A stretch of 62,392 bases of DNA from Myxococcota bacterium (lineage in GTDB: Bacteria; Myxococcota_A; Polyangia; Polyangiales; Houyiibacteriaceae), in NCBI GenBank assembly GCA_039030295.1, contig JBCCEK010000004.1, positions 1 through 62,392 of the forward strand, written 5' to 3'. Within the stretch, counting starts at the first letter, position 1; every line of letters starts with the position of its first letter. Positions 1 through 26,902 of the stretch are shown in pieces. A program made the translations under genes and the position numbers. The notes beneath the pieces are model-generated. The model saw only the letters and a program-made list of their open reading frames with translations. It did not search any database and had not been told where the DNA came from.

Positions 1-1068
1 ACACCGGGTACAGAGTTCGTTCCCTTGGGCTCGAAGCTTGGCCGTATGGGGTTCGTGGCAATCGCTGCAAATGACCCCGGCCTGGTACATCTTGCTCTGA
101 AGGAACGAGCCGTAGACATACACTTCGTCTCGAATCTGGCCATCGTCGAAATAGAGATCTCCGTCGAGCGTGGCCATGCGGTATCGGTTGTGGTAGCCAG
201 CCCGATCGTCGCCGAGGTCCGCGCGTCGAGAGTGACACGGGGCACATGTCTCGAGCTCATCGGTCTCCGGGGGTGTCGTCAGGACAGCGATGTCGCGCCC
301 GGGAACGAAGGACCACTGGCGCGTGTTTGCGTTCGGCAGCTTTGTCTCCAAACCAGCGCCATCGGAAAGCACACCGAGCTTGGCGTCCTTCACGTGGCGG
401 GAACCGGGGCCATGACACGCTTCACAGCCAACGCTGACCTCCGCGTAGGATGTGTCGTAGCGGCGGGTCTCGCGTTCGTACCCCTTGATCAGCCGCGTCG
501 AGTGACAGTCGGCACAGTTGTTGTTCCAATTGTAGAGTAGCCCCGTCCAGTGGAGTGGGTCCCCGGGTGCGATGTACTCTTCGGGCTGCAGGTGAAACCA
601 ACGCTGCCCGCCCTCGGGCTTCGGTCGGGTGTCCCAGGCGAAAGCGAAAGCCTGGAGCCGGCCAGGCTCTAGTTCGACGAGGTACTGCTGTAGGGGAGCC
701 GCCCCGAACGTGTAGCGAACAGGAAAGGTGCCCAGCTTCCCGTCGGGGCCAAGCGCAGACACAACGAAACTTTCGCCGCGCTTCTCGAAGCGAGCTTCTT
801 CGTCATAGTACGCAGCCGACGCCCCATCGAAGTCTCCAAGGACGGTCGCCTCGGTGGCGGGCTGCATCGCAAGGTCGTGGTGGGATCCTAGCCAAGCCTC
901 ATGCGCTGCCTCGTGACAGGAAGCACAGGTTTCGGTTCCGACGTAGCTGGGCGGGCCGGCTTCGATCGCCGGCGTGGGCTGAGAGGGCTTCGACTCTTTG
1001 TTCGAGCATCCAGCATGCGCGACGAGAACCGCGACGCACCCGATCACGCTTGCGGCGCGTGGCATCAT
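1..1068 (-). CDS. multihaem c-type cytochrome lipoprotein (cytochrome c554-like family); 3' end runs off the window
   Basis: Absent from the ORF track because no stop lies in the window. My reverse-strand translation from ATGATG (1068-1063) stays open to base 1. It reads MMPRAASVIGCVAVLVAHAGC (lipobox), then CxxCH motifs CASCH, CADCH, CEACH, CAPCH, CSDCH. Confidence 0.8.
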   Translation of the reverse strand, partial: MMPRAASVIGCVAVLVAHAGCSNKESKPSQPTPAIEAGPPSYVGTETCASCHEAAHEAWLGSHHDLAMQPATEATVLGDFDGASAAYYDEEARFEKRGESFVVSALGPDGKLGTFPVRYTFGAAPLQQYLVELEPGRLQAFAFAWDTRPKPEGGQRWFHLQPEEYIAPGDPLHWTGLLYNWNNNCADCHSTRLIKGYERETRRYDTSYAEVSVGCEACHGPGSRHVKDAKLGVLSDGAGLETKLPNANTRQWSFVPGRDIAVLTTPPETDELETCAPCHSRRADLGDDRAGYHNRYRMATLDGDLYFDDGQIRDEVYVYGSFLQSKMYQAGVICSDCHEPHTAKLRAQGNELCTRC

Positions 1069-1195
1069 GGCCCGCAATATCGCGGAATCGCCGAGAAGGA
1101 CAACCCGCGCTCGTGTCGCGTGTCGTCGGACGCGTTCGGGAGCGGGGGTCGGGAAAAAGCAGACTGCTCGCTCGCTCTCGGGATATCATCGCGGC

Positions 1196-2701
1196 ATGGC
1201 GATCACCACCAGCAGTGCGGTGCGAGGCGTGCGGTTCTTGGTGAGTCTCTTTTTTCGACGAGTGGAGGTGACCGGGACGGACAACGTGCCGCCAACAGGG
1301 GGCGGGATCCTGATCGCATGGCATCCCAACGGGCTTGTGGACCCAGCGTTGATCGTCAGTAGTTTCCCGCGGCGCGTGGTCTTTGGGGCGCGCCACGGTC
1401 TGTTTCGGTGGCCCCTCGTGGGACAGGTCATGCGGGCACTCGGCACGGTCCCTATCTATCGCGCAGTCGACCTCAAGAACGCGGACGACGAGGCGCGGCG
1501 TGCCGCCAATCGCAAGAGCTTGGATGCGCTCGCGCAGGCGATCTGCGACGGTGGTTTCGCGGCGCTGTTTCCCGAGGGCGTGAGCCACGACGAGCCTTTC
1601 TTACAAGAACTCAAAACGGGAGCGGCTCGCCTCTACTACCGTGCCAAGCAGCTCCGTCACGAAACGGGGGAACCGCCCGTCATCATTCCCGTAGGGCTTC
1701 ACTACGATGACAAGACGTCATTTCGTTCCGACGCGTTAGTGGAGTTTCATCGACCGCTGGCGCTGCCTCGGGAACTCGACACACCCATTCCGGACTTGGA
1801 CGACGAACTGCTTCGGGAGCGAAGCGCTGCGCTAACCACGCATCTCGAGCCGATTCTTCAGGAAGTGACTCATGCAACGGAGAGCTGGGAGCTCAACCGA
1901 CTGATGGGGCGGGTTCGATCGTTGATGCGGGCCGAGCGTGCCAAGCGCGCCGGCGCCAACCTGAAAGCCGCGGACATGACCGAGCGTGCACTCGGGATGG
2001 CCCGTGTGTGGAGAGCCTACCAGGCACGTTCGCTCACGGACCCTGGGATGGTTCAGCAGTTGCTCGGGCGAGTGGCGGCGTACGACGAAGCGCTCCGAGA
2101 GGTGAAGCTCGACGACAACGATCTCGACAAACCCCCTGCGATCGAGTCGAAGTGGCTCCCGCTCATTCTCGCCTTGCAGGCCGCGGTCGTGTTCCTGGTC
2201 TTCCCACCCGTGCTCGTCCTCGGGTCGTTGATCAACGCAGGGCCCTACTTCCTCTCGAACGCCATCGCCAAGCTCGCAGCCAAGCAGTACAAGGACACAG
2301 CCACGATCAAACTGATCGCAGGGCTCGTTCTGTTCCCGACGGCGTGGCTGCTTGCGGCTTTGCTGGTGGGGCTCGGCACGATCGAGATCCACGACTCGTT
2401 CCCGGGTATCCCCCGTGCACCGTGGGCCGCAGGCCTCACGACGTTCTTGATCGGCGCCTTCGGTGGTGCCCTCGCCTTGGTTTATCTCGAGTTGGTCCAG
2501 CGCACATGGAACTCGATCAAGATCCGCGCGAAACGTAAATGGGGCCCGACCATCATCGCGCGCCTCTCGGAGGAACGGAGCGCGCTGTTCGATGCGTTGC
2601 AGTCAATGAGCGAAGGCCTGGATCTACCCGGGCGAGTCCGAGACGACGGGCGCATCAGCGCGACGCCGGGCTTCAGCCTGGACACGGACGACGTGCCTTA
2701 G
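1196..2701 (+). CDS. PlsC-family lysophospholipid acyltransferase with hydrophobic C-terminal domain
   Basis: ORF 998..2701. Start trimmed to ATG 1196 (MAITTSS) because the upstream part would overlap the divergent cytochrome gene. Acyltransferase blocks WHPNGLVD (Hx4D) and LFPEGVSHD. The C-terminal third is membrane-like. Confidence 0.8.
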   Translation: MAITTSSAVRGVRFLVSLFFRRVEVTGTDNVPPTGGGILIAWHPNGLVDPALIVSSFPRRVVFGARHGLFRWPLVGQVMRALGTVPIYRAVDLKNADDEARRAANRKSLDALAQAICDGGFAALFPEGVSHDEPFLQELKTGAARLYYRAKQLRHETGEPPVIIPVGLHYDDKTSFRSDALVEFHRPLALPRELDTPIPDLDDELLRERSAALTTHLEPILQEVTHATESWELNRLMGRVRSLMRAERAKRAGANLKAADMTERALGMARVWRAYQARSLTDPGMVQQLLGRVAAYDEALREVKLDDNDLDKPPAIESKWLPLILALQAAVVFLVFPPVLVLGSLINAGPYFLSNAIAKLAAKQYKDTATIKLIAGLVLFPTAWLLAALLVGLGTIEIHDSFPGIPRAPWAAGLTTFLIGAFGGALALVYLELVQRTWNSIKIRAKRKWGPTIIARLSEERSALFDALQSMSEGLDLPGRVRDDGRISATPGFSLDTDDVP

Positions 2702-2787
2702 GCCGCCTCTCCCCCCTTCAGAGACATCAAAAACGAGTCCTAGGGCGTTCTTGCAGCCCGAAACTGCTGGTATTCCGGCTTGATCCG

Positions 2788-2808
2788 AAAGTAAAGTGAA
2801 TTTACTTT
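2788..2808. promoter_or_regulatory. AT-rich inverted repeat AAAGTAAA-GTGAA-TTTACTTT, candidate TetR operator
   Basis: Perfect 8-nt arms with a 5-nt spacer, ending 8 nt before the tetR ATG at 2816. It is an AT-rich island in a GC-rich context. Confidence 0.45.
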
Positions 2809-2815
2809 AGGGGCC

Positions 2816-3430
2816 ATGACGACGACGACCGTCGGGTCCGGCCGAACACGCCGAGGCCACGCGACCCATGACCGGCTGCTCAACGCAGCGCGGGCAGAGT
2901 TGATCGAGAACGAGGGTCAGATGGAGCTTGCGGCCGTCGCGCGGCGGGCAGGGGTCTCGCCCGGGCTTCCGTACCGGTACTTCGAATCGAAGAGCGCGTT
3001 GCTGGTCGCGGTGGTCGAAGGGTTCTTCGACTCGCTCGACGAGGTCGTCTATCGACCGGTGTTCGCGGAAGTCTCGGACGACTGGTGGGAGCGCGAGAAG
3101 GTGCGAATCGAGAAGATGGTCGAGTTCTTCTACGATGAACCGCTCGGCCCATACGTCGCAACCCAGCTCGCAGGGGACGCTGCCGTTGCTGCCACAAAGA
3201 CGCGGCGCGCGACGCAGCGTGTACGAGGAGCGACCGCCAACGTGGAAACCGGAAAGCGGTTGGGACGTGTCCCGGCGTTCATCGATGCAGAGCTCTCAGG
3301 TGCTTGCCTCATGGGAGGCGTGGAGCAAGCCATCCACCTCGCGCTGACGCACAGTCCGAAGATCGCTCGTGCTCGCGTCGTGGAACAGCTTCAAGCGTTT
3401 ATGCGCAATGTCTTGCAGATCGAGGAGTAG
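2816..3430 (+). CDS. TetR/AcrR family transcriptional regulator
   Basis: N-terminal HTH: RLLNAARAELIENEGQMELAAVARRAGVSPGLPYRYFESKSALLVAVV. ATG start verified. Confidence 0.9.
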   Translation: MTTTTVGSGRTRRGHATHDRLLNAARAELIENEGQMELAAVARRAGVSPGLPYRYFESKSALLVAVVEGFFDSLDEVVYRPVFAEVSDDWWEREKVRIEKMVEFFYDEPLGPYVATQLAGDAAVAATKTRRATQRVRGATANVETGKRLGRVPAFIDAELSGACLMGGVEQAIHLALTHSPKIARARVVEQLQAFMRNVLQIEE

Positions 3431-3433
3431 GCC

Positions 3434-4582
3434 ATGAAACAAGAGAAGGCGATCGAGCTGATTTCAGAATGCCTGGAGCTGATCGGCAAAGACGAGCCGT
3501 TCATGACGAATGACGAGATGAAGGTTCCCGTGAGGGAGTACCTAGACGAGCGCATGTTCGACGAGGAACGGGCCCAGCTGCTTCGCAGCTCAATGAACAT
3601 CGTCGCCCACGGGAGCCAAGTGTCGAAGCCCGGGGACTTCATCACGCGCGACGTCCTTGGGACGCCGGTCCTGCTGGCGCGACAGAAGGACGGCACTCTC
3701 AAGGCGTTCGTCAACGTCTGCAGGCACCGCGGCGCAACGGTAGAGACGCGATCGCACGGGAACTGCCGGCGTTTCGTCTGTCCGTACCATGCGTGGACCT
3801 ATCGGACCGACGGGGCTCTGGCTGCGGTTCGACACGAAGACGGGTTTCCGACGCTCGACGTCGCGAACACGCACTTGGTGGAGCTTCAATGCTACGAGGC
3901 CGCAGGTCTCGTATGGGTGTGCCCCGACCCTCAGGCACCAACTTGGTCACCCGACGAGGGTACCAGGACGCTGATCGCCGAGCTCGAGGGGCTTGGGTGC
4001 GGCTCGTCGGTCGTGTTCGCGTCGGACGATCGTGTCTGGCACGCAAACTGGAAGCTCATCGCCGACGGGGGTCTCGAGTCTTACCACTTCAAGATCTTGC
4101 ATCGCAACACCATCGCCGACTTCTTCACCGACAATATCTCCACGTTTGAGTTCCTTGGCGATCACATCCGCACCGTTCTCCCTCAGCGCTCGATCGTCGA
4201 GCTTCGAGAACAACCCGAGTCCACGTGGGACATCCGCAAGCACACGCATGTCGTGTACTTCGTCGCGCCGAATGCGACGATTCTGATTCAAGAAGGGCAC
4301 TACGAGCTGATCTTGACGACGCCGTTGTCGGTCGGCCAAACACGGATCGAGGTGCTGACTGTGGTACCCGCGCCGCGTGAGTCCGGCTTCAGCGACCGCG
4401 CGACGCAGTTCTGGACCGCCAATCATGATTTCACCAGGAAGACCCTATACGAAGACTTCGAGGTCGGCGAGCAGATCCAGCGAGGGATGCACACAGGCGC
4501 GAACGAGTTCTTTCGCTTTGCGCGCTTCGAGGGAGCTCTCACGCAATGGCATGAGCGGCTGGCCAACCGGCTCGGGCGTTAG
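3434..4582 (+). CDS. Rieske [2Fe-2S] non-haem-iron oxygenase, alpha-subunit type
   Basis: Rieske motif CRHRG..x..CPYHAWTY. Mononuclear iron motif DGGLESYHFKILH (D-x3-E-x2-H-x4-H). Starts 3 nt after the tetR stop. Confidence 0.9.
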   Translation: MKQEKAIELISECLELIGKDEPFMTNDEMKVPVREYLDERMFDEERAQLLRSSMNIVAHGSQVSKPGDFITRDVLGTPVLLARQKDGTLKAFVNVCRHRGATVETRSHGNCRRFVCPYHAWTYRTDGALAAVRHEDGFPTLDVANTHLVELQCYEAAGLVWVCPDPQAPTWSPDEGTRTLIAELEGLGCGSSVVFASDDRVWHANWKLIADGGLESYHFKILHRNTIADFFTDNISTFEFLGDHIRTVLPQRSIVELREQPESTWDIRKHTHVVYFVAPNATILIQEGHYELILTTPLSVGQTRIEVLTVVPAPRESGFSDRATQFWTANHDFTRKTLYEDFEVGEQIQRGMHTGANEFFRFARFEGALTQWHERLANRLGR

Positions 4583-4670
4583 GGCGCGAGACACATCGGT
4601 CCTCGGAGCGCGAAACTCCGATGCGGGTTCCGCGGTGCGAGGGGCGCCTTGAACCTAGGGGCGGAGGGGC

Positions 4671-4745
4671 GATTTGGGTTTTCGCGGTGCGGCCGGTAAA
4701 TGCTTGGAAATGAAGGGTTTTTGGGGGGCTAGCGTGACCCCGGGT
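4671..4745 (+). repeat. copy A of a ~74-nt conserved intergenic element (copy B at 30012..30086)
   Basis: The 20-mer TTTGGGTTTTCGCGGTGCGG at 4673-4692 is identical at 30014-30033. Downstream blocks TGGAA, TTTTnGGGGG and GTGACCCCG keep the same spacing. A degenerate half copy GGGTTCCGCGGTGCG lies at 4625-4639. Confidence 0.6.
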
Positions 4746-5283
4746 TCCAGGGGATGTCGGGGATGGCGTCTTGGTGGTTGGCGTAGCGTGCGAGGGTGAA
4801 GAGGAGGTCGCTCAGGCGGTTGAGGTAGCGCGAGACTTCGCCGCGCACGGGCTCTTCGGCACTGAGGGATACGACGGCGCGTTCGGCACGGCGGGCGACG
4901 CATCTTGCGACATGAAGGCGAGCGGCGTTCTCGCCTCCGCCCGGGAGTACGAACGAGGTGAGGGGCGGTGGGCCCTCTTCGAATCGGTCGATGGCTCGCT
5001 CGAGTACCTCGACTTGGCTCTCGTCGATCATCGGGAGTCCGCCTTTGTCGCTCCGGCCCGGTGCCGAACCGAGCTCGGCACCGACTTCGAAGAGCTCGGT
5101 CTGGATCTGGTTGAGCAAGGCGTCGATCTCGCGATCGGCGATGGGAACGCGTACCCATCCGAGCGTGCTGTTGAGCTCGTCGACCTCACCGTAAGCGGTG
5201 ACGCGCAGGGAGGCTTTCGAAACCCGCGTACCTCCGAACAGCCCAGTGTCTCCGGCGTCGCCGGTCTTCGTGTAGATCTTCAT
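4729..5283 (-). CDS. PduO-type ATP:cob(I)alamin adenosyltransferase
   Basis: N-terminus MKIYTKTGDAGDTGLFGGTRVSK is typical of the family. ATGA overlap with the fmt stop. Confidence 0.9.
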   Translation of the reverse strand: MKIYTKTGDAGDTGLFGGTRVSKASLRVTAYGEVDELNSTLGWVRVPIADREIDALLNQIQTELFEVGAELGSAPGRSDKGGLPMIDESQVEVLERAIDRFEEGPPPLTSFVLPGGGENAARLHVARCVARRAERAVVSLSAEEPVRGEVSRYLNRLSDLLFTLARYANHQDAIPDIPWNPGSR

Positions 5284-6230
5284 CGGTTGTTGACCTCCGC
5301 GGCCGAGAATCGGTCGCCTACCTTCACGCTGCGCCCCGAAATGAACGCCTGTGCATCAAGCCTCTTGCGCCCACTCTCCTGGAGCTCTTGAAGCTCGATC
5401 GTCCCCTCCGAACAGGCGACCAGGACCCCTTCGGGGTCGAGCGCGATGACCTCACCCGGCACTGCGGGTGCGGGGTCGAGGGTCGAGGGCTGCGCGCGGT
5501 AGACCTTGATTCGACGACCGTCGAGCTCGGCGTACGCGCCCGGCCATGGGTTCATTCCCCGTATCTGATTGTGGACATCGTTCGCGGTCCGGTTCCAGTC
5601 GATCCGCCCGTGGGTCTTGTCGAGCAAGGGCGCCATCGTGGCCGCGTCGTTGTTCTGAGGCACGGGCTCAAGCTGCCCGGCGACATGCTCTCGGAGCTTA
5701 CGCGCCAGAAGGTCGGCGCCGAGCGCAGACAGACGCTCGCTGAGCGAGGCCGCATCGTCATCGCGTTCTATGGGTGTGGTGGCGGTGGCAAGGATCGGGC
5801 CCGTATCCATGCCTTCGTCCATCTGCATGAGTGTGACACCCGTCTCAGTGTCGCCATGCACGATCGCCCACTGGATGGGAGCGGCGCCGCGCCAACGTGG
5901 GAGGAGCGACGCATGTACGTTCACGCAACCCATCCGCGGCGCTTCGAGGACCGCGAGCGGGAGAATCCGCCCATAGGCAACGACGACGCCGACGTCCGCC
6001 CCGAGCGATCGCAACCGATCGGCAAACTCAGGCGTTCGGACTCTGGTCGGTTGCCAGACGTCGAGCCCGAGTTCAAGAGCCCGTTGCTTCACGGCAGGCG
6101 CTCTCACGGACAACCCTCGGCCGGCGGGCCTGTCGGGCTGCGACACGACAGCAGCGACCTCGCTTATCCGGTGCAACGCATCGAGACACGGCACCGCGAA
6201 GTCGGGGCTACCGAAGAAGACCGTCCGCAC
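5280..6230 (-). CDS. fmt: methionyl-tRNA formyltransferase
   Basis: RTVFFGSPDFAV N-terminus and HASLLPRWRGAAPIQ motif. GTG start at 6230 verified. Confidence 0.95.
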   Translation of the reverse strand: MRTVFFGSPDFAVPCLDALHRISEVAAVVSQPDRPAGRGLSVRAPAVKQRALELGLDVWQPTRVRTPEFADRLRSLGADVGVVVAYGRILPLAVLEAPRMGCVNVHASLLPRWRGAAPIQWAIVHGDTETGVTLMQMDEGMDTGPILATATTPIERDDDAASLSERLSALGADLLARKLREHVAGQLEPVPQNNDAATMAPLLDKTHGRIDWNRTANDVHNQIRGMNPWPGAYAELDGRRIKVYRAQPSTLDPAPAVPGEVIALDPEGVLVACSEGTIELQELQESGRKRLDAQAFISGRSVKVGDRFSAAEVNNR

Positions 6231-6237
6231 GTGAGGC

Positions 6238-6756
6238 TCACTGAGCCGCGTCGGCCGATGCAGCGCGCTTGGTCATCGTCCGGTGCACGAGACGCTTTCG
6301 GAGAACGCTCAGGCGATCGATCATGAGCTTGCCTTCGAGATGATCGTTCTCGTGCTGAATCGCGATCGCCAACAGGCCGTCGGCTTCGAGTTCGAAAGGC
6401 TTGCCTTCGCGATCGAGCGCTCGGACCCTGACGCGCTCGGCACGGTCGATCTCTTCGCGGACGCCCGGGAATGACAAGCAGCCCTCACTAAACGTCGTCT
6501 CACCCTCGGTCTCGACAATCTCCGGGTTGATGAACACCCTGAGGTCACTCGGCTCGTCGTCCTCGGTGGCGACATCGACGATGAAGAGCCGTTTGGACAC
6601 GCCGATCTGCGGGGCGGCCAGCCCTACTCCTGGCGCGGCGTACATGGTCTCGGCCATGTCCTCGATGAGCGTCTGCAACTCCTCATCGAACTCGGTAACC
6701 TCTTGGCCCGGGTTGCGAAGACGCTTGTCTGGGTAAGCGAGAATCGGTCGAATCAC
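6238..6756 (-). CDS. def: peptide deformylase
   Basis: GVGLAAPQIG, EGCLSFPG and HENDHLEG motifs. GTG start at 6756. Confidence 0.95.
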   Translation of the reverse strand: MIRPILAYPDKRLRNPGQEVTEFDEELQTLIEDMAETMYAAPGVGLAAPQIGVSKRLFIVDVATEDDEPSDLRVFINPEIVETEGETTFSEGCLSFPGVREEIDRAERVRVRALDREGKPFELEADGLLAIAIQHENDHLEGKLMIDRLSVLRKRLVHRTMTKRAASADAAQ

Positions 6757-6804
6757 CTTCTTTTTCTAGCGCCGGGTGGGCGCGGTGGCAACGTCCACGG
6801 CGAG

Positions 6805-6858
6805 TTGACACGAGGACGTCGGTAGAACATGTTCTATTTTCACACACCGCACGGTGTG
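6805..6858 (+). promoter_or_regulatory. putative promoter/operator of the kstD-like gene
   Basis: TTGACA hexamer at 6805-6810. Perfect 14-bp palindrome TAGAACATGTTCTA at 6823-6836. Second inverted repeat CACACCG-CA-CGGTGTG at 6843-6858. RBS GAGGGAG lies before ATG 6872. Confidence 0.5.
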
Positions 6859-6871
6859 CGAGGGAGCGCCG

Positions 6872-8602
6872 ATGCCCGAATGGGACCAAAGTGTTGATTG
6901 GCTAGTCATGGGAAGCGGCGCCTCCGGGTTGTCGGGCGCCATCCGGGCACACGACCTCGGCCTAGACGTCTTGATCGCGGAGAAGAGCGATCTGTTCGGC
7001 GGGAACACGGCCATGTCCGGCGGGGTCTGCTGGGTGGCCAACAACCCCGGAATGGCTGCCGAGGGCATCGAGGACTCCGACGAAGATGGCTTCACCTACT
7101 TGAAGCACATCACTCGCGGTGAAGTCCCGGACGATCGGCTGCGACTCTACGTTCGCGAAAGCAAACGGGTGCTCGCATACTTGCATGACCACACGCACGT
7201 TCGATATGTGCCGCTCGCCAAGTACACCGACTACTACCCCGAAGCGCCAGGCGGAAGGCCTGGTGGCCGCTCGATGGACCCCCTACCCTTCGACGGATCG
7301 CGGCTCCGCGAACACCTCATTCAACTGCGTCGGCCGCACCCTCAATCGCAGATCCTCGGCAAGTTCGGGATCACGGCCAAAGAAGCGCACTCGGCCATCG
7401 GCGTCGGGTTCCGGACGATGCTCTTCATGGCGTGGCAGATGTTTCTGTACCTTCTGCGCTACGGTAAACGCAAACGCTGGGGCCGAGATACCAAGCTTTG
7501 CGCGGGCAACTCCCTGGTGGGCCGACTGCTGCTTTCCGTCAAGGAACGCAACATCCCAGCTTGGCTCAACACCGAGGTGAGCGAACTGGTCTTCGAGGGC
7601 GACCGCGTGGCTGGGGTGGTCCTGAACAAAGATGGCGAGACTCTGCGTGTCCAAGCCCGACGCGGAGTGCTCATCGCTGCGGGTGGCTTCTCACGCAACC
7701 TCGAGATGCGACGAAGGTACCAACGGCTCCCCATCGAGACCGATTGGACCGCCGGAAGCCCATCCAACACGGGCGACGGGATTCAACTCGGAGAGAAGGC
7801 TGGCGGCACACTCGACCTGATGGACGAAGCATGGTGGACCCCCGTTTCGCTAGTGCCGAAGTCGCCCTTCTCATGGGTGATGGTCGTCGAGAAGAGCCTC
7901 CCTCACGGCCTGTTCGTCAACCAAGAGGGCTGCCGCTTCACGAACGAGGCCGCTCCCTACATCGACGTGGTGCATGGCATGTACGAGGACGTGGCGCGCA
8001 CCAACACGGACGACCCCAGGTGGTACCACGTATTCGATGCGACCTATCGGCGCTCTTCGATCGCTGGCCCTGTCGGCCCGGGCAAGGTGATGCCCGACAA
8101 ACAGCTGCCACGACGCTACAAGAACGGCAATTATCTCTTCCGAGCCTCGTCGCTCGAAGAGCTCGCTTCGCAGATCGACGTTCCCGCGGATTCGCTTCGA
8201 CACACCATCGATCGCTTCAACGAGTACGCGGTCCGCGGCGAAGACCCCGACTTCAATCGCGGTTGGAGTTCGCAAGACCGCTACTATGGCGACCCACGCG
8301 TCAAACCCAACTGCGCGCTCGGCCCAGTCGAGACTGGGCCGTTCTACGCAGTACGGATCTATCCGGGCGACCTCGGCACCAAAGGGGGTCTCAGGACCGA
8401 CGACCAGAGCCGCGTCCTCAACGCCGAAGGCAAGTGGATCCCAGGGTTGTATGCCGCGGGCAACTCCACCGCCTCGATCATGGGTCGAACCTACCCGGGT
8501 GCTGGCGGTACGATCGGGCCGGCCCTGATGTTCGGGTTTCTTGCGGCGGAGGCAGCAGCGGCAGACTCGACTGGCGCCCATGAGATGGAAGCCGCCGAAT
8601 GA
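6872..8602 (+). CDS. kstD: FAD-dependent 3-oxosteroid 1-dehydrogenase family protein (KstD-like)
   Basis: ORF 6854..8602; ATG 6872 preferred because of the RBS. FAD fold VMGSGASGLSG..EKSDLFGGNTAMSGG. C-terminal GPFYAVRIYPGDLGTKGGLRTD..GLYAAGNSTASIMGRTYPGAGGTIGPALMFG closely parallels the actinobacterial KstD I recall. Confidence 0.85.
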   Translation: MPEWDQSVDWLVMGSGASGLSGAIRAHDLGLDVLIAEKSDLFGGNTAMSGGVCWVANNPGMAAEGIEDSDEDGFTYLKHITRGEVPDDRLRLYVRESKRVLAYLHDHTHVRYVPLAKYTDYYPEAPGGRPGGRSMDPLPFDGSRLREHLIQLRRPHPQSQILGKFGITAKEAHSAIGVGFRTMLFMAWQMFLYLLRYGKRKRWGRDTKLCAGNSLVGRLLLSVKERNIPAWLNTEVSELVFEGDRVAGVVLNKDGETLRVQARRGVLIAAGGFSRNLEMRRRYQRLPIETDWTAGSPSNTGDGIQLGEKAGGTLDLMDEAWWTPVSLVPKSPFSWVMVVEKSLPHGLFVNQEGCRFTNEAAPYIDVVHGMYEDVARTNTDDPRWYHVFDATYRRSSIAGPVGPGKVMPDKQLPRRYKNGNYLFRASSLEELASQIDVPADSLRHTIDRFNEYAVRGEDPDFNRGWSSQDRYYGDPRVKPNCALGPVETGPFYAVRIYPGDLGTKGGLRTDDQSRVLNAEGKWIPGLYAAGNSTASIMGRTYPGAGGTIGPALMFGFLAAEAAAADSTGAHEMEAAE

Positions 8603-9024
8603 GTGGCAGGGATTGGCGCTCGTTCGGGCGCTTCCACACGAAGCTCTATCGACTGCTCGGCGGCCGCTTCGTCGGTAGCTTGGGTGGCGGGCGCAAGGTT
8701 CTGCTACTCACGACGACGGGACGGAAGAGCGGCCTTGCTCGAACGTTACCGTTGATCTTCATGGACCACGAAGGCGCCTATATCGTGTATGCATCGAACG
8801 GCGGCCAGGAGTCCCCGCCTGCCTGGTGGCTCAATCTCCGTGCCAACCCCGAGGCGTCGGTCCAGATCGGAACGAGATCGGAGCCCGTCGTGGCAAGGGC
8901 CCTCAGCCAGGCCGAGTATGGTTCGGTATGGCCGAAGGCGGCGGCGTACAACAGCCATTGGCGAGGCTACCAGCAGAGCGTCGAGCGCGAGATCCCGCTC
9001 ATCGCACTCGAACCACGCCCATAA
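8599..9024 (+). CDS. deazaflavin(F420)-dependent nitroreductase family protein (Ddn/DUF385-like)
   Basis: KLYRLLGGRFVGSLGGGRKVLLLTTTGRKSGLARTLPL..YIVYASNGGQESPPAWWLNLRANPEASVQ. ATGA overlap with the kstD-like stop. Confidence 0.8.
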   Translation: MSGRDWRSFGRFHTKLYRLLGGRFVGSLGGGRKVLLLTTTGRKSGLARTLPLIFMDHEGAYIVYASNGGQESPPAWWLNLRANPEASVQIGTRSEPVVARALSQAEYGSVWPKAAAYNSHWRGYQQSVEREIPLIALEPRP

Positions 9025-9040
9025 GTTCGGTACCGGGGCG

Positions 9041-11362
9041 CTAGAGGGGATCGATGTCGAGCGAGGCTCTGGCTGGTGCGACCCCATCTTCGATCCTCGC
9101 AGCCAGCCCTGCGGCGACCGCGCGCAGGTTCTTTCGGACGGGCGACTTGAGAAGGACACGATAGTGGTAGCGGCCGCGCAAGCGAGCGAGAGGCGCAGGT
9201 GCCGGCCCGAGGACCTGCACCACCCCGTCGCGGGCGGCCTCATGTCGCTTGGCGACTTCAGCCAGGTGCGTGGCGGCGGCGCGTGCCTCCGATTCGGCTC
9301 CGGCGTGGACACGGACGGTCACGAGTCGGGCGAACGGTGGATAGCCAACCTGTTCCCGAGATGCGACCTCAGACGCAAAGAACGACTCGTAGTCGTGCCG
9401 CGCCGCGTACTGGATGGCAGGATGCTCCGGCTGGTAGGTCTGCAAGACGACTTTACCGGGCGTCTCGGCGCGCCCCGCCCTTCCCGCCACCTGAGCCAAC
9501 AACTGAAACGTTCGCTCCGAGGCGCGGAAGTCAGGAAAGGCGAGGCTTTGGTCGGCCGACACCACACCGACGAGGGTGACGCGCGCGATGTCGTGCCCTT
9601 TGGTGACCATCTGCGTGCCCACGAGAACGTCGACGTCCCCGCGCCGAAGCCGATCGAGAACTTCCTCGACCCCGATACCGGTCGCAGTGTCCCGATCGAG
9701 GCGGGCGACGCGTGCGGCTGGAAAACTCTCGACGATCGCCGCCTCGAGTTGCTCCGTCCCAAGCCCTAGACGTGCATGCTCGAGCCCTCCACAAGACTTG
9801 CACGGCGCGCCGACGTGCTGCCGGAAGTCGCAGTAGTGACAACGCAACGCGCGCTGGCTTCGATGCTCGGTCAACGCGACGCTGCATGCAGGACACTCGG
9901 CCACCGAACCGCAAGCAAGACAACGAACACTCGGAGAGAAGCCGCGACGATTCAAGAAGAGGATCGCTTGATACCCCGCCTCGAGGCAGTCCCCGATCGC
10001 CGAATGTAGCGGACCGGACAACAGACGGTGACCGGTCGGCCCCTGCCGATGTCGCCGCAAGTCGACCACCTCGACCTCTGGGAGCTTCTGGCCGGTGGCG
10101 CGCCGTGGAAGAGAAAGCAGCCGAAGCCCGCCATCGAGTGCTCGCTGATAGGTCTCGACGGCCGGCGTGGCGCTGCCGAGCACACACGTTGCACCGGCGT
10201 AGTGCGCGCGCAGCAGCGCCATGTCCCGTGCTTGGTACCGAAACCCATCATCTTGTTTGAAGGACGGGTCGTGCTCCTCGTCGACGACGATCATGCCGAG
10301 GTCGGCGACGGGGGCAAACAACGCCGAGCGTGCACCCACCGCAATCCGCACGCGACCCGATCGAAGAGACTGCCAGGCGTCGTCCCGCTGCCTGGCGGTG
10401 AGGGCGCTGTGGAGAACCGCGATCTCGTCGCCGAACCGAGCCCGGAACCGCCCGACGAGCTGAGGGGTGAGTGCGATCTCAGGAACCAGGAGGATCGCAC
10501 TGCGTTGGAGTCGACGCACTTCGTCGATCGTCCGAAGGTAGACCTCCGTCTTGCCCGATCCGGTGACACCGTGAAGCAGGAACGCGCCCGCGTCTCGCTC
10601 CCGCACCGCCTTCGTGATCGCGTCGATCGCAAGCTGCTGCTCGGCCGTGGGCGTTGGGGGCTCGTCGCGGGACACTTGGCTCAAGAAGAACGGGTCGCGG
10701 TGGGCGTCCACCTCCTCGACGGAAAGGAGACCGCGCTGCTCGAGCCCGCGAACGACTGCGCGTGGGTCCGAGACCAACTTGCGAACCTCGTCCAGCATGA
10801 GCGAGGGCCGTTCGTTGAACGCGTCGAGGACGCGAAGCTGGCGTGCTCCGAACCGCGTTTCGGGACGTTCAAGGGAAGTGCGCGAGATCTTCCATGTCTT
10901 CGGGCGGGCGACCCGTTGGCCGGGAAGGTTCTCCTCGGGGGCGAGAAACCCATCTTTGCGCAGCCGTTTCATCGCGCCCGAAGGAAGTGCTGGAGCGGCC
11001 GCGCGAAGGACCTCTCCGAGCGGGTGCATGTAGTACTTCGCGGCTTGCTCGAGGAAGTGGAAGAGCTCCCGCGTGAAGACCGGCTCGTCCTCGAGGAGAC
11101 CGGCAACGGGAAGTGCACGCTTGACGTCGGCTGGGAGCTCGCTTCTGAAGCGGACGACGAAGCCCGACAGCTTGCGACCACTGAATGGCACCGCGACCCG
11201 GCACCCCGGCGCCAAGTGCGCGCCAAGCGAGTCGGGAACGCGGTATGTGAAGGAGCGGCGGAGAGGAACCGGCAGTGCGACCTCGGCAAACGCGCGCGCG
11301 TTCGTCGCCACCGGCGGGACGACCGTTGGGCTACTTGGATTCGCGGGCAACGAGCGTTCCAT
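9041..11362 (-). CDS. priA: primosomal protein N' (replication restart helicase PriA)
   Basis: Walker A GVTGSGKT, VVDEEHD box, and Cys-rich zinc region CLACGSVAECPACSVALTEH..CHYCDF. The 5' end overlaps the tsaD 3' end by 32 nt, so a downstream start is possible. Confidence 0.92.
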   Translation of the reverse strand: MERSLPANPSSPTVVPPVATNARAFAEVALPVPLRRSFTYRVPDSLGAHLAPGCRVAVPFSGRKLSGFVVRFRSELPADVKRALPVAGLLEDEPVFTRELFHFLEQAAKYYMHPLGEVLRAAAPALPSGAMKRLRKDGFLAPEENLPGQRVARPKTWKISRTSLERPETRFGARQLRVLDAFNERPSLMLDEVRKLVSDPRAVVRGLEQRGLLSVEEVDAHRDPFFLSQVSRDEPPTPTAEQQLAIDAITKAVRERDAGAFLLHGVTGSGKTEVYLRTIDEVRRLQRSAILLVPEIALTPQLVGRFRARFGDEIAVLHSALTARQRDDAWQSLRSGRVRIAVGARSALFAPVADLGMIVVDEEHDPSFKQDDGFRYQARDMALLRAHYAGATCVLGSATPAVETYQRALDGGLRLLSLPRRATGQKLPEVEVVDLRRHRQGPTGHRLLSGPLHSAIGDCLEAGYQAILFLNRRGFSPSVRCLACGSVAECPACSVALTEHRSQRALRCHYCDFRQHVGAPCKSCGGLEHARLGLGTEQLEAAIVESFPAARVARLDRDTATGIGVEEVLDRLRRGDVDVLVGTQMVTKGHDIARVTLVGVVSADQSLAFPDFRASERTFQLLAQVAGRAGRAETPGKVVLQTYQPEHPAIQYAARHDYESFFASEVASREQVGYPPFARLVTVRVHAGAESEARAAATHLAEVAKRHEAARDGVVQVLGPAPAPLARLRGRYHYRVLLKSPVRKNLRAVAAGLAARIEDGVAPARASLDIDPL

Positions 11363-12404
11363 CGGCCCGAAACTTGCCGCGCCGCCTTTCCGGGTCGCGG
11401 GAGTAGATGGGAAAAGAGAGATCGTCCCGTTCGCCAGCCTGAAGTCGATGCAGGCCCGCGACCGCGATCATAGCCGCGTTGTCGGTGCATGAGACCGGGG
11501 GTGGCACATACAACTCGATTCCGGCAGCCTCGCACGCCTCCTTCGCGCGCGCGCGAAGGCCGCGGTTCGCTGCGACGCCGCCCGTGATCACCAGCTGGTT
11601 GAGGCCCTCTCGCTCGCACGCCAGCACGGACTTTCGAACGAGGCTCTCGACGATGACCCCTTGGAAAGAAGCACAGATATCGGCCAGGCGTCCTTCGTCT
11701 TCGGGGACTCCTTCCTGCTGCACATGGCGAGCGAGGGCGGTCTTCAAGCCCGAGAAGCTGAACTCGAGTGTCTTCTTGGACGCCATCGGCATCGGAAAGT
11801 GCACCGCCTTCGGGTCGCCCTTGGCCGATAGCTTGTCGATTACCGGCCCTCCCGGATACCCGAGACCGAGAATCTTCGCAGCCTTATCGAACGCCTCGCC
11901 CGCAGCGTCGTCGCGGGTCTGAGCAAGGAGCGCGATCTGCGCGAACCCCTCGACGCGGTAGAGCGCGGAGTGCCCGCCACTGACGAGAAGAGCGACATAA
12001 GGCATCTCGGGAACCGGATCGGCCTCGCGATCGGGGCGTTGCAGATAAACCGCGAACAGATGGCCGTCGAGATGGTTCACGCCGACGAGGGGCTTGTCGA
12101 GACTCCACGCGAGCGCTTTCGCAACTTGCACACCGACTAGGAGAGACCCGACGAGACCCGGACCTTGGGTGACCGCGATGGCGTCGATCGCGTCGAGGCC
12201 GCCCGGGACCGAGCCGAGCGCTTCCCGAACCACAGGGACCACCGCCTGCATGTGGGCGCGCGAGGCAAGCTCCGGAACGATCCCACCGTATGGACCGTGA
12301 GTCGCGATCTGACTTGCCACGACGTCGGCTAGCACCTGGCCATGTTCATCGACGATGGACGCAGCGGTCTCGTCGCACGAACTCTCAATGCCGAGAACGC
12401 GCAT
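11331..12404 (-). CDS. tsaD: tRNA N6-adenosine threonylcarbamoyltransferase
   Basis: ORF 11331..12449 trimmed to ATG 12404 (MRVLGIESSCDETAA). Kae1/TsaD family throughout. Confidence 0.93.
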   Translation of the reverse strand: MRVLGIESSCDETAASIVDEHGQVLADVVASQIATHGPYGGIVPELASRAHMQAVVPVVREALGSVPGGLDAIDAIAVTQGPGLVGSLLVGVQVAKALAWSLDKPLVGVNHLDGHLFAVYLQRPDREADPVPEMPYVALLVSGGHSALYRVEGFAQIALLAQTRDDAAGEAFDKAAKILGLGYPGGPVIDKLSAKGDPKAVHFPMPMASKKTLEFSFSGLKTALARHVQQEGVPEDEGRLADICASFQGVIVESLVRKSVLACEREGLNQLVITGGVAANRGLRARAKEACEAAGIELYVPPPVSCTDNAAMIAVAGLHRLQAGERDDLSFPIYSRDPERRRGKFRADGTLVARESK

Positions 12405-12976
12405 CAGAGAGCCTCCCTGTCGAGCGAAAAGAAGCCGTAGAAGTCGCAATCGCCAGCCTCGAGTTCAGCACAGTCGTTCGGATCACAAATGGTGAGGCCG
12501 GAGCCTGCCACCACGCGCACTTCGATCGAACCTCCACGTATCAGGGACATAAACACCATCGCGTCTCTTCCAGCGAGCGGTCCACTCTCAGGACGGGCGA
12601 CGAACATGTAGTTGCGGAGCCTCCCGCGGCCGGGGATTTCGTACAGCCCCAACTGGTCGTGCGCCAATGGTGGGATGGGCAGCAACGGAGTGTCCTCGAA
12701 GGTCGCGGCACAAGCCTCACCGCGTGTCGAGATCGTGCCTGGGTCGTCGAAGGCACTGAACGGATCGAAGCGGAGGTCGAGCGACGTCCCGAAAGGAAAG
12801 CCGCGCCGAATGAACGAGCAGTCCACGCCGTCCGGGCACACCTCGGGGTCGTTGACGCCGGCGACCGCACCTGTGTAGATCTCGTCGTCGCCGGTGTTGA
12901 ACTCACTCAGGGAGTCGCACCCGAGCACGGCGAGAACAACCCACAAGAACACACCAACCCGCATGCGGCGAATCAT
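12404..12976 (-). CDS. hypothetical lipoprotein
   Basis: Signal plus lipobox MIRRMRVGVFLWVVLAVLGC. No family recognised. Its TGA shares one base with the tsaD ATG (TGATG). Confidence 0.6.
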   Translation of the reverse strand: MIRRMRVGVFLWVVLAVLGCDSLSEFNTGDDEIYTGAVAGVNDPEVCPDGVDCSFIRRGFPFGTSLDLRFDPFSAFDDPGTISTRGEACAATFEDTPLLPIPPLAHDQLGLYEIPGRGRLRNYMFVARPESGPLAGRDAMVFMSLIRGGSIEVRVVAGSGLTICDPNDCAELEAGDCDFYGFFSLDREAL

Positions 12977-13031
12977 AGAGGAAGCCCGCGGCAGGGGCCA
13001 TCAGCCCGTCAGTGACTCGACCCTCGAGGCC

Positions 13032-16000
13032 CTAAATGCTAGCCCGCAGCGTCTTGCTGGCCGACAGCCAACGGCGATAACCCGGGGCGTCACCCGCTTG
13101 TGCCGCCAGCGAAGCGGCGTCCTCGTAACGGAGTTGGGCGTCTCGGGCGCGACCTGCCAGCTCGTCGATCGACCCCAGCATTCCAACGGCTCGCGCCACG
13201 ACGCTGAGTGAACCTCGACGACGGCCGTGCTCCTCGACTCGCGACAGCTCGCGAGCCGCGCCTTCGTGCTCCCCCGCGGCGGTCAGGGCATCAGCGAGCT
13301 CAAGTGTCGTCCGAGTGATCACGTCGGCCGGAGCCCCTGTCTCTCCAAAGAGCTCGAGTGCCCTTCGGTACGCGTTGGCCGCGTGTTGAGGGTCCCCCTC
13401 CATGCGACGGATCCGTCCGATCGCAACCTGGAGGTGCGACTCGATCTCCGGCTCGACCCCGGCCACCAACTCGAGCGCCTGGCCGAACTGTCGCATCGCG
13501 TCGCGTGGCCGATCACGGCGCGCGGCGATGCGTCCGAGCGCCAGCAGCATGCGCGCGCGGTCGGGACTTCGAGGGTCGGTGAGGTCGAGCGCCTCGCGCA
13601 AAACCCCGTCCGCGCCCGCCGGGTCCCCACCCCGAGACATCGCCTCGCCAAGCTTGCGGCTGAACGTGGAGATCGCGCGATCGAGGACCGTGTCACCACT
13701 CTCGAGGGTTTCTCTTCGGGCGAGCTCGAGGGCGCGTCGGTACTGCGCGACCGCACCGAGATGGTCACCGCGCACCATAGCCGCGTCTCCGGTTCGTTCG
13801 AGAACGACCAGGCTCGTGACGGCTTCGACGCCGCGGAAAGCATGGAGGGCTCGAACTTCTTCGGGAGCACGAAGTTCGCTCAGGACACCGTAGGCCGCGC
13901 GGTGCAGGTCTCGGCGCGCTTCGGCGGGAATCGAGGCCTCGACGAGCTCGGCGATGAAGGGATGAACGATGCTGCCCCGAGACCCGTTGAGTTGGATGAT
14001 CGAGTTGCCGGCCAACTCGTCGAGACCCTCGAGCTGGTCGTCTCCAGAGACTTCACGAAGCGCATCGAGATCACAGGTGCGGCCAAGCACCGCCGCGGCC
14101 TGAAGCAAGCGCTGGGCATCGACGTCGAGACGCTCGATCCGCTGGAGTACGGCATCCGCAAGCCGTGGCGGAGGTCCGTCATCAGGCGAGACGCCAAGCG
14201 CCTCGAGCTGCTCGAGGTGCAAAGGGAGCACTCTCCCGATCGCATCGGTGAGCCGGTGAAGGCCGGACACGAGTCGGAGCTGAAAGGAGCCCGCCAAGAA
14301 CCGCTGCGCGTCTTCGGAGCTCAGCCCGTCGAGCCTGACGAGTTCGTTGGCATGCACACCCCGATCGTCGTCCCCGGCGGTGACCAGCAAGACCGGCTCG
14401 TTCCCTAAGACTCGAGCCAACTCGACGACGGTACGTTGCGTCAGGCCATCGCAATAGGGGAGATCATCCACGATCAGCATCACGCGCCCGCTGACCGCAC
14501 GCCCACGCGCCCGCCGCACCGCACAAGCAAGCGCCTCGGCTACAGCACCGGTGCGAGAGCGCCCATCGCCACCGAAGAGCCCGGCGGGGTTGATGACCTC
14601 CTGTACCCCAGCGCCGGCGAGAGCAGACCCGAGTTCTTCGCCACGGTCAGCCATCCGCTTCAACTCTGAATCGTCGACCTCGAGGAGCTCGGCGAGGATG
14701 GTGCGTACTGCGGTGTAGGGAACGGGCGCGCCGGTGGGGTGAGCACCCGCGCCGACCACCAGGTCGCCTTCGGCAGCCGCGATCTCGGCGATCTCGGTCA
14801 GGAAGCGCGTCTTGCCGACCCCTGATTCTCCCCACACGTGAACCCAGTGACTCCCTTGGGACGCCGCGTGTCGCGCCTCCTTCAGTACCTGGAACTCGGC
14901 CTCGCGACCGATGAAATCTCGTTGTGACCCGAGCGGGGGGTAAAACGACGGTCGCAGCGAGTGGTGGCTTGCGTAGGAGGGACGAGCGCTGCCGAGGCGG
15001 GCTCCGCACTCGCCACAGAAGTTCTGGGAGAGCGTGACCTGCGCCCCACAGTTGGGACACGGGATGATCGAGGCCCGTTGGACACGCAGCTCTTCGAGAG
15101 CTTCGCGAAGGGCTTGCTGCATGTCTCGAGCCGTCTGATAGCGATCGTCGGCGTTCTTGGCGAGCGCTTTCATGGTGACTGCGGCGAGTCGATCCGGGAT
15201 GTTGCGATTCGGGCTGGCGAGCCGAGGATCAGGCACCGGGTCGTTCAGGTGCCGAAGCACGACACGCGTCGGGGTGTCGTCAATGAACGGAAGGTGTCCT
15301 ACCATCAACTCGAAGAGCACGACGCCGAGGGCGTAGATGTCGCCGCGACCGTCGACATCATCCCCTCGTCCCTGCTCTGGTGACATGTAGTCCGGCGTAC
15401 CGCAGACGAGGCCGGGCTTGGTGATCGAGCTCTCACCACCGACGATCGTCGCCAAGCCGAAGTCGACGACCTTCACCAGATCGTCGCCGGATCGAAGTGG
15501 CCGAAGGATGATATTCTCGGGCTTTAGATCGCGATGCACGATCCCAAGCTCGTGTGCCTCCCCAAGTGCATCGAGGCTGTTGACCAGGATGTTGCAGATG
15601 CGATCCGGCGCGAGCGGCCCTTCCTCATGCATGATGAGGGCGAGGTCCTTGCCGCTCAGAAACTCCATCGCGAGATAGAGGATGCCGTCATCGGTTCGGC
15701 CGAAGTCGATGATACTGACGCTGTTTGGGTGGTTGAGGCGACTCGAGGCCCGAGCTTCTTGGTAGAAGCGAGCCACGGTCTGCTCGTCCCCCAAGAGATG
15801 GGGGTGGATCACCTTGACGGCGACCGTACGACCGAGCGTCGATTGCTCAGCCTTGTAGACACGCCCCATCCCTCCGACGCCGACGACTTCCTGCAGAAGA
15901 TAGGTGCCCCCGACGATTCGACCGATCAACGGATCGGCGCCGCCGGCGCCCCCGCCTTCGTCAGACGGCGCCCCGCAGGCCGAGCAAAACCGGGCGTCGT

Positions 16001-26898: not shown

Positions 26899-26902
26899 GC
26901 GC

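Follow-up and report, generated by a model that had tools for sequence, protein, structure and literature searches.

A KstR-type operator and a translationally coupled kstD-like/FDOR-A gene pair in marine Myxococcota

Background

Control of steroid catabolism by the repressor KstR is regarded as an actinobacterial trait. A perfect KstR-type palindrome in front of a kstD-like gene in a marine Myxococcota bacterium, of a lineage that includes 'Myxococcales bacterium SG8_38', raises the question of whether a KstR-type regulatory unit operates in this phylum, or whether the palindrome reflects chance, another regulator or DNA imported from elsewhere. Full-text literature searches found no papers linking KstR to Myxococcota, and myxobacteria and Deltaproteobacteria go unmentioned in a 2016 genomic survey of steroid degraders (PMC4810484).

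Anatomy of the locus

In the window (the whole stretch of DNA analysed, 62,392 nucleotides) the kstD-like gene and its downstream partner form a two-gene operon between a divergent def-fmt operon and a convergent priA gene. The pair's slot, def-fmt on one side and priA-tsaD on the other, recurs in about 46 Myxococcota species, and the flanks are myxobacterial housekeeping genes, in line with an earlier impression. The -35 hexamer, palindrome, start codon at 6872 and ATGA overlap of the original prediction are all present where it placed them, and the features of the locus are as follows.

6805-6810, plus strand: -35 hexamer TTGACA of the kstD promoter, a perfect consensus, conserved at orthologous loci
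6823-6836, no strand assigned: KstR-type operator TAGAACATGTTCTA, a 14-bp perfect palindrome with invariant half-sites that matches the published motif
6828-6833, plus strand: putative -10 element CATGTT within the operator, placed from its spacing only, 17 nt past the -35 hexamer
6843-6858, plus strand: leader inverted repeat CACACCG-CA-CGGTGTG, a lineage-specific 5'-UTR hairpin by RNA folding
6861-6866, plus strand: ribosome-binding site AGGGAG, 5 nt before the ATG
6872-8602, plus strand: kstD-like gene of 576 aa with ATG at 6872, an AcmB-type homologue (PF00890, NCBIfam, 7P18)
8599-8602, plus strand: ATGA start/stop overlap, translational coupling; the junction is kept in FDOR-containing orthologous loci
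8599-9024, plus strand: gene of 141 aa of the FDOR-A (Ddn-like) deazaflavin-dependent oxidoreductase family (PF04075, TIGR00026)

A consensus promoter/terminator scan found no terminator after the operon, and profile searches of the window revealed no genes for KshA, HsaA-D or side-chain degradation. No RNA sequencing runs were found to cover the region; the single run that contains it is a marine metagenome whose listing as DNA is a guess.

Conservation of the operator

The palindrome is not significant by itself. Perfect 14-bp palindromes number 8 in the window against 7.6 in Markov simulations, and the degenerate core motif published for KstR, TnnAACnnGTTnnA, which TAGAACATGTTCTA matches (PMC1995591), is found once where 0.29 matches are expected, with at least one match in 25 of 100 shuffles; chance can thus account for the palindrome as such. 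Its conservation exceeds chance. In an alignment of orthologous promoters from 47 Myxococcota species all 12 half-site bases are invariant: TAGAACATGTTCTA itself is present in 40 of the 47 species-level loci, and the remaining seven vary solely at the two central bases. Neither the 12-nt spacer between the -35 hexamer and the operator nor the leader is conserved in the same alignment. Across 553 kb of the family's DNA there are 46 copies of the strict motif, every one at a kstD promoter. The window holds a single operator site by motif scan, and one further copy was seen in a genome of the same family (locus L192, from the same MAG as orthologous locus L048). The prediction of a KstR-type operator in this promoter, which hinged in part on conservation at orthologous loci and on further copies of the motif, is upheld by the 47-species alignment and the match to the published motif.

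Between the perfect, conserved -35 hexamer and the operator are 12 nt, and another 35 nt separate the operator from the ATG. In the printed alignment, 45 of 47 rows have TTGACA at exactly this 12-nt distance from the operator; in the other two (L043 and L045) it stands 24 nt upstream. A consensus scan of the kstD promoter detected neither a sigma-70 promoter nor a consensus -10 element. At a spacing of 17 nt from the -35 hexamer the -10 element would fall within the operator, where the candidate CATGTT has the A-11 and T-7 bases; the mycobacterial KstR site likewise overlaps the -10 region (PMC1995591).

A second inverted repeat, at 6843-6858, had also been pointed out. It is present there, and as RNA it folds with -12.5 kcal/mol (z -1.6), but it is not conserved in the family. 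In L001, which is 97% identical, a hairpin of different sequence stands at the same place (-16.9, z -2.1); L004 and all other members of the family lack the repeat, and L001 alone has a hairpin there. A role for the repeat as a second operator is rejected, as it is unconserved and replaced by a different hairpin in L001. At the position of the ribosome-binding site most orthologous loci have AAGGAG, versus AGGGAG in the window.

The kstD-like gene

Both genes had been assigned to families from the letters alone, and the PF00890 and KstD models for the first and PF04075 and TIGR00026 for the second confirm these assignments. The product of ORF 6872-8602 matches PF00890 over residues 9-547 (E 6e-81), and its N-terminal dinucleotide-binding motif, VMGSGASG...E, is that of the FAD_binding_2 fold. 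Its top NCBIfam matches are 3-ketosteroid delta-1-dehydrogenase models, with 570.9 bits against a cut-off of 789 (NF009478) and 567.7 against 788 (NF005882). Since these scores lie below the equivalog cut-offs, substrate identity is not guaranteed, and the protein is best filed as a KstD-family homologue, not a proven isofunctional KstD. Models for 4-oxocyclohexanecarboxylate dehydrogenase match as well, at 336 and 325 bits.

Among solved structures the best match is AcmB (7P18), aligned over the full length with E 4e-139 and 42.5% identity, in agreement with the predicted KstD homology. The alignment passes the AcmB-specific insertion without large gaps and places tyrosines at AcmB Y118, Y363 and Y536, of which Y363 is the catalytic base and the other two also have assigned roles (PMC9736390). 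In a sister clade (L049) the kstD gene adjoins a homologue of HsaA that scores 442.6 bits, just under the cut-off of 450. An exact-sequence look-up of the window's protein gave no match.

The coupled FDOR gene

The product of ORF 8599-9024 scores 113 bits on PF04075 (cut-off 22) and 95.3 bits on TIGR00026 (cut-off 46.35), and the best solved structures for it are those of M. tuberculosis Ddn (E 2e-21, 41.7% identity). The two proteins share the stretches LLTTTGRK(S/T)G and P-x-W-(W/Y)-LNL-x-ANP in alignment, which we take to be those lining the cofactor site in Ddn. About half of the orthologous loci contain the gene, every one of these with an ATGA or GTGA junction, and deletion remnants are found in three others; FDOR has been deleted repeatedly within the family and is coupled wherever it is present. 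The original reading of the second gene as a Ddn-type enzyme translationally coupled to the first thus stands on the family models and on the conserved junction. The basal loci L043-L045 lack FDOR, as do all KstD loci outside the family, so that FDOR alone looks like a lineage-specific addition. The matches of a protein search with FDOR were orthologues only, all of at least 60% identity, and a genome pattern scan for its relatives returned two loci with over-specific patterns. A 2021 review of F420 gives FDORs for Actinobacteria and Chloroflexi only. The FDOR sequence was also located on one 1.7-kb contig.

KstR-type sites and KstR-like regulators elsewhere

In 11 Nocardia loci the exact 14-mer precedes a TetR gene by 60-100 bp, and one of the Nocardia regulators behind it, named KstR by NCBI, scores 336 bits on the NCBIfam KstR model, above the cut-off of 280. 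In Myxococcota, KstR-type sites precede SCP2-NMO-aldehyde dehydrogenase and ChsH2-like genes (L081, L086), an acyl-CoA dehydrogenase gene (L172), an enoyl-CoA hydratase gene (L139) and an NMO gene (L192), and in L107 the palindrome lies between a kstD homologue and a divergent gene for a KstR-like TetR protein. Such proteins are numerous outside Actinobacteria (1811 at E <= 1e-25 in a protein search). They share 34-35% identity with actinobacterial KstR over the full length, with a near-identical helix-turn-helix, and their best NCBIfam match is KstR, with 108-118 bits across the whole model. Because these scores compare with a cut-off of 280, the related Myxococcota regulators constitute a separate subfamily. 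Their clusters hold genes for KshA, KstD, FadD, ACAD, ChsH2, thiolase and MlaE, and one cluster of 16.6 kb carries five sites; the four gene-neighbourhood look-ups that returned steroid clusters all concern genomes outside the window's family. Within that family the regulon members seen are kstD and, in L192, NMO, each an isolated gene.

A profile search of the 62-kb window found no KstR-like regulator, and none from the window's family was found among the matches listed by a genome scan and protein searches. The scan, made with a TetR alignment, listed mostly Actinobacteria, and the best 120 matches were examined for the two protein searches.

Vertical inheritance of the unit

KstR, its operator and the FDOR-A enzymes are best known from Actinobacteria, and the pair was originally taken for an actinobacterial-style module acquired horizontally. 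The gain of FDOR within the lineage could be read in the same way. Synteny is kept over about 46 species, however, and the identity of KstD across the def-fmt/priA-tsaD loci, 69-97%, tracks that of the neighbouring housekeeping genes. The pair has no anomaly of composition, its GC and GC3 being those of its surroundings. In the tree the KstD clade groups with sequences from uncultured 'Proteobacteria', Anaerolineae and Binatia and has no actinobacterial sister group, and the protein is about equally far from proteobacterial AcmB (42.5%) and actinobacterial KstDs (40-45%). KstR-type sites and KstR-like TetR genes are, moreover, widespread in other Myxococcota. Synteny, composition and the KstD tree all speak against recent horizontal transfer, which is rejected, and the proposal of a horizontally acquired actinobacterial module, unsupported as a recent or local event, is altogether quite improbable. 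The kstD unit has been inherited vertically: 47 related species keep its operator unaltered, and the unit is therefore a long-standing resident of the lineage, not a newcomer. An ancient transfer between phyla, of the whole regulatory system or of FDOR alone, is conceivable.

A model for the operon, and its alternatives

The best explanation overall, and probably the correct one, is a genuine KstR-type regulatory unit in a phylum new to such control, together with a novel pairing of KstD and FDOR. A KstR-like TetR repressor, encoded elsewhere in the genome, would bind the palindrome as a dimer and block RNA polymerase, the operator covering the presumed position of the -10 element, and a ligand, presumably derived from a steroid, would free the repressor from its site. 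In mycobacteria the ligand of KstR is a 3-oxo-steroid CoA thioester. The first product would be an AcmB-type FAD enzyme that puts a C1-C2 double bond into what are probably 3-ketosteroids, and coupled translation would yield the second, a Ddn-like split-barrel reductase whose expected substrate is a quinone or an enone and whose likely cofactor is reduced F420. Since many sister species have deleted it, FDOR may be an accessory partner. A more specific version of this scheme, in which the operon is a two-enzyme ring-A redox module whose KstD makes a 1,4-dien-3-one and whose F420H2-dependent FDOR-A reduces one of its double bonds, e.g. delta-4, is a long shot. The 2,3-seco route of steroid degradation, which is independent of oxygen, requires double-bond reduction of this kind.

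It is unlikely that the conserved palindrome serves a regulator that is not KstR-like, whether the window's own TetR protein or a non-TetR protein, and matches the KstR consensus by convergence. That reading draws on the result, described above, of the search for a KstR-like gene among the family's listed matches, and on the presence of a TetR gene (2816-3430), the only one in the window, 3.4 kb upstream of the operator. This regulator gives no match to the KstR model (NF033703), its best match being BetI at 26 bits, and its weak similarity to solved KstR structures (E 0.003) covers the helix-turn-helix only. Together with its Rieske partner it is confined to the window and L001, versus an operator kept in 47 species, and directly upstream of its start codon it has a different, 18-bp palindrome of its own, TAAAGTGAATTTACTTTA (2792-2809), which L001 retains. 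On these grounds the window TetR is rejected as the operator's regulator, and against convergence more generally stands the physical pairing of the identical 14-mer with KstR-like TetR and steroid genes elsewhere in Myxococcota.

A flavoprotein whose substrate is a cyclic ketone other than a steroid, or some other enone-forming compound, in a unit unrelated to steroids in this host, is likewise rather unlikely. The unreached KstD equivalog cut-offs, the matches to the 4-oxocyclohexanecarboxylate dehydrogenase models, the lack of other steroid genes in the window and the scattering of the family's regulon members as single genes are all consistent with it. The KstD models and the AcmB structure are nevertheless by far the best matches (571 versus 336 bits for the models), and the protein does not cluster with non-steroid reductases, as might have been feared at the outset. 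The alignment of the three catalytic tyrosines and of the AcmB-specific insertion, the HsaA homologue beside the nearest outgroup genes and the association of this type of operator with steroid clusters in both phyla likewise favour a steroid substrate.

Significance

The operator, a related TetR subfamily and target genes of steroid type are now seen across Myxococcota, which adds to the organisms in marine sediments that are likely to transform steroids, and TAGAAC-NN-GTTCTA provides a simple sequence marker for finding myxobacterial steroid regulons. The conserved coupling of KstD and FDOR, together with the repeated loss of FDOR, constitutes a natural experiment in which species with and without the gene could reveal the physiology of FDOR-A enzymes and the use of F420 beyond the known phyla. 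Should the ring-A module be real, a steroid would for the first time be known as a physiological substrate of an FDOR-A enzyme, and marine Myxococcota would for the first time show a sign of using F420, all under a KstR-type switch.

Comparison with known systems

The closest regulatory parallel is the KstR regulon of Mycobacterium, Rhodococcus and Nocardia, governed by the TetR protein Rv3574. The operator is identical, the 14-mer preceding kstR in Nocardia, and the target is a kstD gene; in the window, too, the site would lie over or next to the -10 region. Other Myxococcota encode related TetR proteins (PF00440 and PF17925), each with its own upstream site. The systems differ in phylum, in the scores of the related TetR proteins on the KstR model, which fall short of its cut-off, and in the targets in the window's family, which are isolated genes among housekeeping genes and not part of a large catabolic cluster.

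For the first enzyme the model is AcmB of Sterolibacterium denitrificans (PDB 7P18), with which it shares a full-length alignment, an FAD-binding N-terminus, the three tyrosines and the long form with a membrane-associated domain. The window protein differs in scoring below the NCBIfam KstD cut-offs and in the translational coupling of its gene to FDOR, a coupling found at none of the KstD loci examined outside the window's family. The second enzyme belongs to the same Pfam and TIGRFAM families as Ddn (Rv3547) and the FDOR-A1 F420H2-dependent quinone reductases, and its identity to Ddn approaches 42%. Unlike Ddn it is found in Myxococcota, beyond the range of Actinobacteria and Chloroflexi given in the 2021 review, and its gene is predicted to share a KstR-type operator and a transcript with that of a steroid dehydrogenase.

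Organization of the kstD-FDOR promoter

The kstD-like gene (ORF1) and its deazaflavin-dependent oxidoreductase neighbor (ORF2, FDOR-A) are arranged as follows, and each element of the original prediction (TTGACA, palindrome, inverted repeat, AGGGAG, ATG and ORF overlap) is found in the sequence exactly where it was placed:

5280-6230, opposite strand, upstream of kstD: methionyl-tRNA formyltransferase (fmt)
6238-6756, opposite strand, upstream of kstD: peptide deformylase (def)
6805-6810, plus strand: -35 hexamer TTGACA, read in the sequence
6823-6836: perfect 14-bp palindrome TAGAACATGTTCTA, putative KstR-type operator
6843-6858: inverted repeat CACACCG-CA-CGGTGTG, between operator and ribosome-binding site
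6861-6866, plus strand: AGGGAG, ribosome-binding site
6872-8602, plus strand: ORF1, kstD-like, ATG at 6872, 576 codons
8599-9024, plus strand: ORF2, FDOR-A, 141 codons; its ATG (8599) is overlapped by the ORF1 TGA
9041-11362, convergent, downstream of the pair: priA
11331-12449, convergent, downstream of the pair: tsaD

The nearest genome record is a "MAG: Myxococcota bacterium" (L001; protein identity 97%), and the sole sequencing run containing the kstD region is a marine metagenome. Elsewhere in the window, a 787-residue ORF (24792-27155, minus strand) with many tandem Cys-/Asp-rich modules, C-x-DG-x-DNDGDG-x-x-D-(F/Y), resembles a secreted calcium-binding repeat protein, and a sulfotransferase (PF13469) and a DUF1214 protein (57936-60481) are apparently co-transcribed.

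By itself the palindrome is not beyond chance: chance would give 0.29 matches to a degenerate KstR motif across the window, which holds 8 perfect 14-bp palindromes versus 7.6 in simulations. The operator is judged real because of cross-species comparison, not palindrome frequency. A one-genome-per-species search gave 80 loci, about 48 of them orthologous, and 47 were anchored on the palindrome for alignment. All 12 half-site positions are invariant in these 47, the two central bases vary (AT 40, AA 4, AC 2, GT 1), and the 12-nt spacer and 25-45-nt leader carry nearly no information. Reading the printed alignment row by row puts TTGACA exactly 12 nt upstream of the palindrome at 45 of the 47 loci and 24 nt upstream at L043 and L045. 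The strict motif occurs 46 times in 553 kb of family DNA, once per locus and always at the kstD promoter. This pattern is a classic phylogenetic footprint, left by a protein binding site within a promoter. The inverted repeat at 6843-6858 was rejected as part of the footprint, since a hairpin recurs only in L001, with a different sequence (-12.5 kcal/mol in the window; -16.9 kcal/mol at L001 5970-5990), and is absent from all other family members, including the next relative. Most family members also conserve an element, CGCAAGATC, about 10 nt before the -35 box of kstD (GGCAACGTC in the window, ~6785-6800), which on the other strand could be the -35 region of a divergent def-fmt promoter.

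Operator identity and the candidate repressor

The kstD operator sequence fits the KstR core motif, a site that in mycobacteria extends over part of the -10 region (PMC1995591). The exact 14-mer has at least 120 matching loci in the genome collection. Among the matches listed, many are from Nocardia, Rhodococcus, Gordonia and Mycobacterium; 11 Nocardia loci carry the site 60-100 bp upstream of a TetR gene, and one such TetR, named KstR by NCBI, scores 336 bits on the NCBIfam KstR model (cut-off 280). The predicted KstR-type operator is thus backed by the footprint, the motif fit and the same 14-mer upstream of Nocardia kstR. About a dozen of the listed matches are from Myxococcota, and sites in this phylum include:

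L081: before an SCP2/NMO/aldehyde dehydrogenase operon and a ChsH2-like gene
L086: before another ChsH2-like gene
L172: before an acyl-CoA dehydrogenase
L139: two sites, before an enoyl-CoA hydratase
L155 (MAG shared with orthologous locus L043): before an amidohydrolase
L184, 2920-3831 (Myxococcales MAG): exact palindrome adjoining the start of a TIGR03619 F420-dependent luciferase-like oxidoreductase (186 bits, cut-off 167)
L192, 5703-6868 (MAG shared with orthologous locus L048): exact palindrome before an isolated NMO/FabK-like gene, with unrelated genes around

L184 is a second link of the operator with predicted F420 enzymes in Myxococcota. The original prediction had made further motif copies in the genome a check on the operator; L192 lies in the MAG of L048, and therefore at least one genome of the window's family carries a further copy. 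As the gene at L192 is isolated, the family regulon looks scattered, not clustered; so far it comprises two isolated genes, unlike the large clusters elsewhere.

At L107, a Kofleriaceae MAG locus, a kstD homologue and a TetR gene diverge from either side of the palindrome. The TetR protein aligns along its whole length with actinobacterial KstR (34-35% identity), its helix-turn-helix is almost the same, and the two share one Pfam architecture (PF00440 + PF17925). The best NCBIfam match of this TetR is KstR (113 bits over the full model length, under the 280 cut-off), as it is for three relatives, from Polyangiaceae and other MAGs, which also stay below the cut-off. The KstR-like TetR subfamily numbers 1811 proteins at E <= 1e-25. 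In four context look-ups, all in genomes outside the window's family, these genes cluster with KshA (Rieske + KshA_C), KstD-like, NMO and acyl-CoA dehydrogenase genes, and with acyl-CoA synthetases, ChsH2/thiolase pairs and MlaE-type transporters. In the 16.6-kb steroid-catabolic cluster L287 (ERZ25039495 contig_6675, 1-16597), operons begin at five TAGAACATGTTTCA-type sites, one of them 30 bp before the TetR gene; the cluster holds a KstR-like TetR, KshA, aldehyde dehydrogenase, a ChsH2 pair, thiolases, acyl-CoA synthetases and an ACAD. No such TetR gene turned up in the window or among the matches listed for its family; a KstR-like repressor of the window's kstD promoter is therefore inferred.

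The TetR gene inside the window (2816-3430) was considered for this role and rejected: it has no match to the NCBIfam KstR model, belongs to an insertion found in the window and L001 only, and is directly preceded by an 18-bp palindrome of its own with a different sequence. This near-palindrome, TAAAGTGAATTTACTTTA (2792-2809), is probably the operator of that TetR itself, because it immediately precedes the TetR start and L001 retains it. The insertion (2816-4582), between the acyltransferase and PduO genes, also carries a Rieske/Ring_hydroxyl_A oxygenase (3434-4582) that is not KshA-like; its best NCBIfam match is GbcA (101 bits), with a faint 35-bit match to the sterol demethylase SdmA.

KstD and the question of transfer

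The KstD-like character of the first gene is borne out. Two KstD models are its best NCBIfam matches (571 and 568 bits, short of cut-offs 789 and 788), and its best solved relative, AcmB of Sterolibacterium denitrificans (7P18), aligns end-to-end (E 4e-139, 42.5% identity), including the region that sets apart the AcmB subgroup with a membrane-associated domain; Rhodococcus KstD1 scores 281 bits. The AcmB catalytic tyrosines, base and stabilizers Y363, Y118 and Y536 (PMC9736390), all align with Tyr in ORF1, a KstD-family flavoprotein.

The suggestion that an actinobacterial module was acquired horizontally is not supported. About 46 species share the order acyltransferase - PduO - fmt - def - [kstD - (FDOR)] - priA - tsaD, KstD identity (69-97%) runs in step with def and priA, and the GC and GC3 of the pair are those of its neighbors. 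In a neighbor-joining tree, family KstD groups first with three genes from uncultured "Proteobacteria" MAGs; these genes have the same operator, and one adjoins an HsaA homologue (442.6 bits, slightly short of the 450 cut-off); Anaerolineae, Binatia and Chloroflexi follow, and Actinobacteria and Steroidobacteraceae are farthest. Nothing in the tree points to a recent, or a specifically actinobacterial, origin of kstD or its operator.

An accessory FDOR

ORF2 is an FDOR-A protein, as first proposed: it exceeds both curated family cut-offs, is 41.7% identical to M. tuberculosis Ddn and keeps the LLTTTGRKSG stretch. About half of the core family has the gene, in every case with an ATGA or GTGA overlap, and it is absent from several sub-clades, three basal loci and every KstD locus outside the family. 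In-frame remnants persist at L012 (residues 120-138), L020 (1-23) and L036 (113-138), and the ATGA junction persists in several FDOR-less loci, which indicates independent internal deletions. This distribution therefore argues for one gain within the lineage and repeated deletion, and FDOR is taken to be an accessory, not an obligate, partner of KstD.

A model for the operon

The reading as KstR-type operator, KstD and FDOR is supported by these comparisons, and strong comparative evidence argues for KstR-type repression of the operon. A KstR-like dimer would occupy 6823-6836, within which the -10 element should fall, given the perfect -35 box 12 nt upstream, and would silence the operon until a steroid-derived ligand dislodges the dimer. 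KstD would then desaturate ring A of a 3-ketosteroid, a reversible chemistry (PMC9736390), and the coupled reductase, where present, might draw on F420H2 to reduce a quinone or the enone system. Both substrate classes are reduced by FDOR-A enzymes in vitro (PMC8498797); the role of the reductase in the module is conjecture. A 2021 review of F420 gives FDORs for Actinobacteria and Chloroflexi only (PMC8498797), and full-text searches turned up no publication that ties KstR, steroid catabolism or F420 metabolism to Myxococcota. The locus is a known kind of regulatory unit, here in an unexpected phylum and with a previously unreported KstD-FDOR coupling.
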